A stretch of DNA of 8,286 nt, taken from assembly GCF_024700885.2 (NCBI RefSeq), contig NZ_CP117015.1. The stretch is one strand, 5' to 3'. Below are positions 3,001-6,000 of the stretch, in pieces. The DNA comes from Escherichia coli (GTDB lineage Bacteria; Pseudomonadota; Gammaproteobacteria; Enterobacterales; Enterobacteriaceae). Position numbers: made by a program. Within the stretch, counting starts at the first letter, position 1, and every line of letters starts with the position of its first letter.

Positions 3001-6000
3001 TGATTATTGAGATGCTGACTTAGATGGCGCGGCTTTAGCGGATCCGATTTTTAACTGGCGACAGCTTAGTAACGACAGACAGTCTGGTGATTGCCTGTCT
3101 GTCATTGTTGTTCATTTCAATTCAATTCGCCTAATTAGTACATATCCAAAAGCCGTGTCTGCGTACATAACAGTCGTCATTGGGCACTGTTGCAAAGTTA
3201 GCGATGAGGCAGCCTTTTGTCTTATTCAAAGGCCTTACATTTCAAAAACTCTGCTTACCAGGCGCATTTCGCCCAGGGGATCACCATAATAAAATGCTGA
3301 GGCCTGGCCTTTGCGTAGTGCACGCATCACCTCAATACCTTTGATGGTGGCGTAAGCCGTCTTCATGGATTTAAATCCCAGCGTGGCGCCGATTATCCGT
3401 TTCAGTTTGCCATGATCGCATTCAATCACGTTGTTCCGGTACTTAATCTGTCGGTGTTCAACGTCAGACGGGCACCGGCCTTCGCGTTTGAGCAGAGCAA
3501 GCGCGCGACCATAGGCGGGCGCTTTATCCGTGTTGATGAATCGCGGGATCTACCACTTCTTCACGTTGTTGAGGATTTTACCCAGAAACCGGTATGCAGC
3601 TTTGCTGTTACGACGGGAGGAGAGATAAAAATCGACAGTGCGGCCCCGGCTGTCGACGGCCCGGTACAGATACGCCCAGCGGCCATTGACCTTCACGTAG
3701 GTTTCATCCATGTGCCACGGGCAAAGATCGGAAGGGTTACGCCAGTACCAGCGCAGCCGTTTTTCCATTTCAGGCGCATAACGCTGAACCCAGCGGTAAA
3801 TCGTGGAGTGATCGACATTCACTCCGCGTTCAGCCAGCATCTCCTGCAGCTCACGGTAACTGATGCCGTATTTGCAGTACCAGCGTACGGCCCACAGAAT
3901 GATGTCACGCTGAAAATGCCGGCCTTTGAATGGGTTCATGTGCAGCTCCATCAGCAAAAGGGGATGATAAGTTTATCACCACCGACTATTTGCAACAGTG
4001 CCCGATCAAGGGATTCGAAGTCATGCGAGCCCTGCGCAAAGGACAGGCTCGCCCCTGGTGCCTGCAGCCCGGCATCAGGGGCGAGGTGCGCCTTGTGGAG
4101 AGAGCTTTTGGCATTGGGCCCTCGGCGCTGACGGAGGCCATGGGCATGCTCAACCACCATTTCGCAGCAGCCGCCTGATCGGCGCAGAGCGACAGCCTAC
4201 CTCTGACTGCCGCCAATCTTTGCAACAGAGCCCGCCGTGCTAGTCTGCTCGGTGATGGTGGAGTGAAGCCAACCCGCAATCGGGTTATGAATCTGCATCG
4301 CGATTCGCAATCAGCTGTCTCTTGAGCATGTCGAACTCCTGCGATGTTATCTCGCCGTGCTCGTGCTGCTACACCAACTTGTCCAACTCATCCGCCACAC
4401 CGCTCCCCACCACCTGCGATGGCCAGGTTGTTTGCTGGGCGCATTGGCGGAGTATCGTCTCGACCCGGGACACCCACACCGGCACAACCTTACGGGAGTG
4501 ATTCACTGTCAAAGAATCGGCCCGGTGCTCTGACGCAAGTATCGGGATGGTCACCATTTGTAAGCCGTAGACCTGAGTGGTGATCAAGACTTCGATACCA
4601 CCGACCGTACCGGTACTAATCGACGACGGTCGTGTTCGTCGCCTGCCGCAGGGACTCTGCACACCTCCGTTTACGCATGTGCCTGGAGGAGTTGGAAATC
4701 GTCGTGTTCGGGAAACATTAAACACAGGATGGCAGCGATCTGAGCCAGCACATGATCAGCTAGCTCACCATCCGGATCGACGGCCCACTGCATCGTCGCG
4801 CCAGCGATGACCGAGTGCAGGAGCAACTCAGCTGCCGCAGGAGCACCTGGGGGCAGTCGCTTGCGGATCCCCTCCACCACCGCGCGGTTCCGCTGGATCG
4901 CAAGCGTGCGTAGCTCCGGCACCTGGAGCTCGTACCAGGAGATGAGATAGTTCACCGAGAAGTCGTTGCGAGTGTTCATGCTCCGAACGAGCACCTGCAA
5001 AAATTCCCAGAGCCCTTGCGGCCCTGCGCCTATCGGTATCGCATTCAGGTAATGCCGCACCTGCTCGACGCCGCGCTCCATCATCCTCACCAGCAGCGTA
5101 TCGCGGTTGGTGAAGCGCTGGATTAACGCTGCGCGGGAGAGCCCCACCTCCTTTGCTACTCCGCTGAGCGTGAACTCTATGGGACCGCAACGCTTCAGCA
5201 CTACGGTGGCGGCCTCGAGTACCTCGTCATCGGACTTGAGCTTGGGGCGGGGCATCAGTGTTCACCTTCTGTATGGGTTGGGGCGGAGGCTGTGGCTGCC
5301 GCCGCCATTGTAGCAAATTGAAGACGGAGCGAGAGTAGAGCCACGAGCCCCGCAAACACGGCCGATACAACGAGGCCAGGGAGCGGACCAGCAAGGTCGA
5401 CAAACGCGCCGGCCGCAAGCATAACCATGGGCGAGGCTGACAGCATCACCGCCGAGACCGTGCCGAGTACCCGGCCGAGAAGTTCTGGCGGCGTGCGGTT
5501 GTAGATGGCAGCGTTGAGAATGGGAGAGACTGAGCCGGTCAGCAGTCCCACGAGCGCGCCCAACAACATCAGCACCGGCACGCCTGGCAACTGTGAAAGC
5601 AGAAGCGAGCCCACCGCAGAGCCACAAAATGCCACCGCCAGCCAGTTCTGCGCTGATATCCGGGCGCCGACCGACGCATGAATGGCAATGCCAAGGAGAC
5701 CACCAGCCCCCATCATTGAGGAGAACAGCCCGAGCTCTGCTACTTGGCGTCCTGCATCTACAAACAGCGCAGGCATGATGACGCTGCCGTTGGCGCCAAC
5801 GATGCCCACGAAGATCATCACTATACCAAAGAGAGGGCGCAGCAGGGGTTCGCTCCAGAGAAAAGCGACGCCGGCGCGCATGGAGAGAGTCGCCGTCGTG
5901 GTCATCGTCCGAGCGGCACGCGCGGGAAGCACCCACGCGCCGAGCAGACCTGCAAGGACGGAGCAGAACGCCGTCAGCCCGAGCGTTGGCGCAGCGCCAA

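Follow-up and report, generated by a model that had tools for sequence, protein, structure and literature searches.

The window, by which we mean the whole 8,286-bp stretch of DNA analyzed here, represents circular plasmid p8_MLI114 (NZ_CP117012.1) in full, with its start shifted by 928 bases. MLI114 (BioSample SAMN29553896) is an ESBL E. coli strain that, according to the source paper, was isolated from a stool sample of a soldier on deployment in Mali. A sister plasmid, p8_MLI121 (CP117015), comes from an isolate that is 14 cgMLST alleles away from MLI114. The plasmid is composed of a 3,176-bp ColE1-type cryptic plasmid and a 5,102-bp IS26-bounded mph(A)-mrx(A)-mphR(A) module, and its features, in window coordinates, are as follows:

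1..3182: ColE1-type backbone (RefSeq annotation, Rfam, Pfam tags on relatives)
109-208, minus strand: RNAI, in the backbone (Rfam RF00106)
within the backbone: rop (RefSeq annotation)
within the backbone: small NikA-like mobA (RefSeq annotation or Pfam tags on relatives)
1901-2605, minus strand: gene for a 234-aa winged-helix protein, in the backbone (RefSeq annotation, Pfam tags on relatives)
3175..3182 (left) and 8285-8286 plus 1-6, over the circular junction (right): 8-bp target-site duplication CGTCATTG
3183..4002, minus strand: IS26 copy A, 820 bp, with tnp26 inactivated (comparison with copy B, RefSeq pseudogene)
4003..4232, plus strand: IS6100 remnant (dIS6100), the terminal ~230 bp, cut by copy A
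4671..5255, minus strand: mphR(A) repressor gene (194-aa ORF and RefSeq annotation)
5255..6493, minus strand: mrx(A) MFS transporter gene (412-aa ORF and RefSeq annotation)
6490..7395, minus strand: mph(A) macrolide 2'-phosphotransferase gene (301-aa ORF)
7465..8284, minus strand: IS26 copy B, intact, with tnp26 at 7517-8221, 234 aa (RefSeq WP_001067855.1, IS26 family transposase)

Each of these components belongs to a known kind, be it IS26, the pseudo-compound transposon that it bounds, the mph(A) operon and its remnant of IS6100, or the cryptic plasmid of ColE1 type. The replicon belongs to the ColE1 (RNAI/RNAII) type, as it has both the RNAI antisense RNA, which matches its Rfam model with 93.6 bits against a threshold of 47, and rop. 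The pseudo-compound transposon consists of two directly oriented IS26 copies, repeated at 3183-4002 and 7465-8284, around a passenger segment of 3,462 bp. Within this segment, the genes follow the mph(A)-mrx(A)-mphR(A) order of the macrolide-resistance operon and are succeeded by the IS6100 remnant; the operon DNA is 99.9-100% identical to many annotated copies. The mph(A) gene is complete in the circular molecule and is labeled "partial" in RefSeq only since the record begins within it. The dIS6100 segment has ...TTTGCAACAGAGCC as its final bases, up to 4232, and matches the IS6100 end of pSCU-105-2 and p11_MLI105; the RefSeq annotation here is a partial IS6 family transposase. A 239-aa ORF on the plus strand (3412-4131) was regarded as spurious: it is antisense to tnp26 and crosses the IS26 boundary into the IS6100 remnant. 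The substitution at 3552 that is described below is synonymous in the frame of this ORF.

A position-by-position comparison of the two 820-bp IS26 copies yields a single mismatch, A at 3552 in copy A versus G at 7834 in copy B, and the identity of the repeats stops at 820 bp on the left side. [quoted passage not shown] Copy B also has the 234-aa DDE transposase gene that is expected of IS26, reading from 8221 to 7517 on the minus strand, whereas copy A lacks it: the corresponding frame starts at 3939 and runs into TAG at 3552-3550, where the matching codon of copy B is CAG. RefSeq/PGAP likewise treats the tnp26 CDS of copy A as pseudogenic, noting an 'internal stop'. The frame is thus divided into three parts:

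3553..3939, minus strand: surviving tnp26 frame of 129 codons (translation), holding the M1-P56 DNA-binding region, a linker, and D78
3550..3552, minus strand: premature amber TAG, Q130* (codon comparison); the mutated base, 3552, is A on the plus strand and T on the coding strand
3235..3549, minus strand: untranslated rest of the tnp26 frame, codons 131-234 and the stop, carrying D138 and E173

The catalytic residues of Tnp26 are D78, D138, and E173 (residue numbering and domain limits from Pong et al. 2021, PMC8477213). In the translation, they are found in the motifs HMDETY (residues 76-81), INTDKAP (135-141), and VIECDHG (171-177), so that two of the three lie downstream of the stop in copy A, where 129 of 234 residues remain. 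A preliminary description of this DNA had claimed that the base at 3552/7834 is the sole difference between the copies, that the change from CAG to TAG ends Tnp26 after 129 residues, and that the lost C-terminal part should hold some of the catalytic region; the base comparison, the translation of both copies, and the location of D138 and E173 beyond the stop bear out each of these points. Judged from its sequence, copy A descends from IS26 but is not autonomous, and it is very likely to be a genuine IS26 copy that was inactivated through point mutation. Its designation as the left copy holds in the orientation of the window; when IS26 is oriented by convention, so that tnp26 reads rightward, copy A becomes the right-hand one.

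The origin of the plasmid can be reconstructed from the boundaries of the module. The 8-bp direct duplication is perfect and is present on both outer sides of the 5,102-bp composite, as expected from copy-in by IS26. A query made by joining both flanks in silico, with one copy of the duplication taken out, located the empty site at 100% identity in the 3,176-bp NZ_CP093389.1 (Salmonella) and in CP099278.1 (E. coli), and the size arithmetic agrees (3176 + 8 + 5102 = 8286). At the sequence level, the duplication together with the empty site is the signature of an IS26 copy-in insertion. Because copy-in duplicates the IS along with 8 bp of the target, the two IS26 copies should start out identical.

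Two other replicons indicate which of the two bases came later. The module of pB20123_2 (NZ_CP142932.1) is the same as that of the window over all 5,102 bp, including the IS26/dIS6100 junction, save for G at 3552; there, both IS26 copies are intact, and the module, which has no flanking 8-bp duplication, lies on a conjugative plasmid of type IncK2/Z, beside a class 1 integron with dfrA5. The finished E. coli chromosome CP050196.1 contains an IS26-backbone-IS26 arrangement with G at the position equivalent to 3552. Since both have G, the A allele is derived and is later than the assembly of the module and the plasmid. The arrangement in CP050196.1 is also a trace, though only an indirect one, of IS26 cointegrate movement. 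We propose that a translocatable unit (one IS26 and dIS6100-mphR(A)-mrx(A)-mph(A)), or a cointegrate that was later resolved, would have entered the 3,176-bp ColE1-type plasmid by the copy-in route of IS26, and that both IS26 copies would have been identical at its formation. A subsequent G:C->A:T transition in copy A would have changed codon 130 from CAG to TAG, and the mutant plasmid would then have persisted as a lineage that was sampled more than once.

The preliminary description had named an assembly error at base 3552 as the observation that would overturn its reading, and such an error is unlikely on the evidence of a second assembly. A search with the 234-aa backbone protein retrieved contig AASWSY010000059.1 (GCA_012613865.1), which has a length of 8,286 bp and, although in the opposite orientation and with another start point, is the same as the window at every base after rotation, including A at 3552; it is recorded in four samples. 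Its accession series is unlike that of the Mali study, which makes it a separate deposit and not a copy of CP117012, and the same A in an independent GenBank assembly makes a base-call error improbable. Among complete E. coli genomes, a 1.4-kb query over the backbone/IS26/dIS6100 junctions had a full-length match only to the source record.

Some observations would fit the idea that the A is a base-call or polishing artifact of the MLI114 hybrid assembly, with both copies being wild type. The long reads of MLI114 are ONT R9.4.1 reads, methylation motifs are a known cause of R9.4.1 substitution errors, and a GATC Dam site is located at 3547-3550, two bases from the mutated site. Moreover, three other assemblies of the same plasmid (L027, L029, and L030) have G in both copies. 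On the other hand, G is read in copy B, where the surrounding sequence is identical and belongs to the same molecule, and the GCA_012613865.1 contig agrees over its entire length. The MLI114 assembly was a Trycycler consensus of the ONT reads, treated with medaka and then polished with Illumina reads using Polypolish (source paper); this last step should have mended an error confined to the long reads if all short reads had G. As for the assemblies with G in both copies, the terminal overlaps of 822 bp (L029) and 127 bp (L030) are what repeat resolution on an assembly graph typically leaves and imply that both copies there represent one consensus. These assemblies look like short-read or metagenome assemblies with collapsed repeats and are thus uninformative rather than contradictory. 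Taken together, we consider an artifact very improbable.

The same nonsense allele exists elsewhere. The preliminary description had suggested a survey of other plasmids with this module for the SNP. The allele proved to be common in another context, and the pB20123_2 module has G. A 101-bp query centered on the SNP had perfect matches in PLSDB (25 other plasmids) and in the set of complete E. coli genomes (12 other records), and the exact 129-aa product is encoded on 98 contigs. In the inspected records of the allele outside p8, the left end of IS26 adjoins nhaA, with the flank AAAAATACCCTCAGC, and linkage to nhaA was seen in all 10 contexts retrieved for the 129-aa protein. These copies, found on large plasmids of Citrobacter, Enterobacter, E. 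coli, and Klebsiella, share with copy A the G->A change, the 129-aa product, and the 'internal stop' label, but they have other flanks on both sides. In a base-by-base comparison of five full-length copies (L002, L003, L004, L007), all had a second SNP, A>T at the window equivalent of 3266, which is absent from copy A. In many nhaA-linked copies, a Tn3-family element truncates the IS at its coordinate 218. The nhaA-linked allele therefore represents a lineage separate from that of copy A.

Could copy A nevertheless have acquired the mutation from this lineage, by recombination or gene conversion with an nhaA-linked IS26 Q130* that shared its cell? The wide occurrence of the identical change speaks for such a transfer, and a random substitution would give this exact change in only about 1 of 2,460 cases. 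The conversion tract, however, would have to cover 3552 and yet end before 3266, since copy A is without the second SNP. The allele was not found on any other MLI114 replicon, and the supplementary table of the source paper lists IS26 in this strain only on p8_MLI114. Furthermore, only 24 GC>AT transitions in tnp26 yield a stop codon, so a repeated hit among null alleles is not remarkable and not very improbable. A Dcm hotspot was rejected as an account of the mutation: the mutated C sits in GGCAGATC, not in CCWGG. Transfer from the nhaA lineage is thus rather unlikely, and we favor an independent hit at the same base, as suggested by the flanks and by the lack of the second SNP, over a short conversion tract.

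The consequences of the stop codon for mobility can be predicted from published IS26 genetics. When one partner in an interacting pair of IS26 copies, no matter which, was frameshifted, targeted conservative cointegrates formed ~30-fold less often; frameshifts in both copies abolished this reaction, and a frameshifted IS26 alone produced no detectable cointegrates with an IS26-free target, falling under a detection limit of ~10^-8 (Harmer, Moran & Hall 2014, PMC4196232). In the same study, D-to-L and E-to-L substitutions in the DDE triad acted like the frameshift, as nulls. Excision of the translocatable unit from Tn4352B requires Tnp26 from one copy only, the left-hand one in the discussion of that work (Harmer & Hall 2015, PMC4676283), and an intact tnp26 in the other copy failed to replace the frameshifted one. 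This complementation result is read as cis action. Copy B is the left-hand copy in the standard orientation, which is the copy whose Tnp26 was needed for the excision of Tn4352B.

The 129-aa product of copy A would keep the DNA-binding N terminus and D78 but, having lost D138 and E173, would be catalytically dead. The closest precedents are the IS26-FS-L and IS26-FS-R constructs (Harmer, Moran & Hall 2014; Harmer & Hall 2015), in which one of two direct copies is likewise dead and its terminal repeats are intact. By analogy with them, copy A alone could not initiate copy-in cointegrate formation, targeted conservative reactions involving it would be roughly 30-fold rarer, and its intact neighbor would not rescue it. 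In these constructs the lesions are engineered 4-bp frameshifts that leave a 30-aa product or lie near the 3' end, whereas copy A has a natural amber codon and a 129-aa product, and the predicted phenotype is an extrapolation across this difference. With its ends intact, copy A could still take part in reactions as substrate or target. In MLI114, Tnp26 probably comes from copy B alone, and with copy B intact, the module should still move: its spread could proceed via copy B, via a translocatable unit excised in a RecA-dependent manner, or along with the plasmid. Where the crossover occurs would decide whether a unit excised by RecA bears the mutant IS or the wild-type one; if crossovers are uniform, one on the 3553-4002 side of the SNP, which makes up ~55% of the IS length, would leave the unit with a wild-type IS.

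Tn4352 and Tn4352B (IS26-aphA1a-IS26) resemble the present module in that two direct IS26 copies surround a resistance segment and movement occurs via a translocatable unit. Tn4352B differs in its passenger, aphA1a, and in having a run of five G residues, which is critical for its high-frequency excision (Harmer & Hall, PMC4676283), whereas the inner boundary at copy A has a run of only three; frequent Tnp26-mediated excision is thus not expected here. The preliminary description had argued that the cis preference of the transposase makes copy A dependent on copy B, and the published frameshift and Tn4352B experiments support this argument. It had further argued that movement of the module is limited. 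For copy A itself, published genetics sustains this view; for the module, the limit is an extrapolation and would be small. Loss of tnp26 in copy A probably limits the mobility of the module only modestly, because copy B is intact, the terminal repeats of copy A are kept, and RecA-dependent recombination between the copies is unaffected.

A different kind of role may be imagined for the truncated protein. Tnp26(1-129) could have been kept as a trans-acting inhibitor that binds IS26 ends, damping IS26 and stabilizing the plasmid; truncated transposases act as inhibitors in other insertion sequences. The product retains the M1-P56 domain that recognizes the terminal repeat (PMC8477213), two lineages share this truncation point, one of them persisting over several genera, and the inspected contexts of the 129-aa protein were uniformly nhaA-linked. 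If true, a selected trans damper could explain both the shared truncation point and the persistence of the mutant p8. Yet the M1-P56 fragment binds the terminal repeat only weakly, requiring far higher concentrations than full-length Tnp26 does (PMC8477213), and dead full-length DDE mutants lower cointegration no more than the 30-aa frameshift null, with no sign of a dominant-negative effect (PMC4196232). The Tn4352B complementation points to cis action (PMC4676283), and hitchhiking at a fixed junction explains the persistence of the nhaA-linked allele. In public data, products of ten other GC>AT nonsense sites are found on 79 to 947 contigs each, versus 98 for the 129-aa product; this would make them about as frequent, although the comparison is confounded by fragments at contig ends, which give the same sequences. 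We regard selection for an inhibitor as very improbable.

The stop in copy A is an ordinary decay mutation of a kind already known, given that RefSeq flags it, the allele is widespread elsewhere, and the effects of one dead copy were established a decade ago. For functional tests, the nature of the codon calls for caution. The amber replaces a Gln codon and supE44 hosts insert Gln at amber codons; such hosts would regenerate wild-type Tnp26, and functional tests thus need a suppressor-free strain. DH5alpha, the plasmid-propagation host in IS26 studies, is listed there as supE44 (PMC4196232, PMC4676283). Q130* can serve as a lineage marker for the 8,286-bp mph(A) plasmid, and p8_MLI114 offers a natural counterpart of the engineered constructs with one dead copy by which the cis action of Tnp26 was established.

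Read from its sequence, p8_MLI114 is exactly a 3,176-bp cryptic plasmid plus the 5,102-bp IS26-bounded module plus 8 bp. A perfect 8-bp target-site duplication, CGTCATTG, is present at window 3175-3182 and at 8285-8286 plus 1-6, and the uninterrupted site is found at 100% identity in two 3,176-bp plasmids from Salmonella and E. coli (NZ_CP093389.1 and CP099278.1). Locus 8595-13428 of the E. coli chromosome CP050196.1 also has the same small-plasmid backbone, lying between two wild-type IS26 copies and without the mph(A) segment; this arrangement looks like what remains of a cointegrate that IS26 formed with a derivative consisting of the backbone plus IS26.

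In addition to rop and a 107-aa NikA-like MobA, the backbone (window 1-3182) carries an RNA feature:
109-208, minus strand, RNAI
No relaxase gene is present in the annotation of the backbone, and mobilisation of p8_MLI114 probably needs the help of a co-resident element.

Two annotations within the module call for comment. In the circular molecule, mph(A) is whole (301 aa, window 6490-7395; 7418-8286 plus 1-37 in the record NZ_CP117012.1). It is annotated as partial in RefSeq and listed as PARTIALP (233/301 aa) in the AMRFinder table of the source paper because the deposited record is marked as linear and starts inside mph(A). The other annotation lies at the junction of IS26 and IS6100:
3951-4025 (record 4879-4953), minus strand, partial "TetR family transcriptional regulator" pseudogene of 75 bp called by PGAP
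This feature runs across the boundary between the left end of IS26 and the remnant of IS6100, and it looks like a spurious call.

Only two bases separate position 3552, which creates the Q130* stop in the left IS26 copy, from the GATC Dam site at window 3547-3550. This proximity bears on a possible ONT R9.4.1 error; however, the intact right copy has an identical context, and yet its base is G. A separate and widespread IS26 Q130* lineage is fixed beside nhaA (comparison loci L002-L004, L007-L008, L010-L011, and L015-L024). It occurs on large plasmids in Citrobacter, Enterobacter, E. coli, and Klebsiella; a 5.2-Mb contig also has it at a single site. This lineage has an additional SNP at IS position 737 (standard orientation), and in many of its IS26 copies a Tn3-family element has cut off the sequence at IS coordinate 218. 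Loci L005 and L006 have the same truncated copy, but with a different sequence at the left end.

Two related small Col plasmids, pSCU-105-2 and p11_MLI105, have backbones that are about 93% identical to that of p8_MLI114. Both have mph(A) together with an entire IS6100, as well as TEM-1, a retron Se72-type reverse transcriptase and effector, and only one IS26. These plasmids represent a different route of the same resistance operon onto small plasmids.
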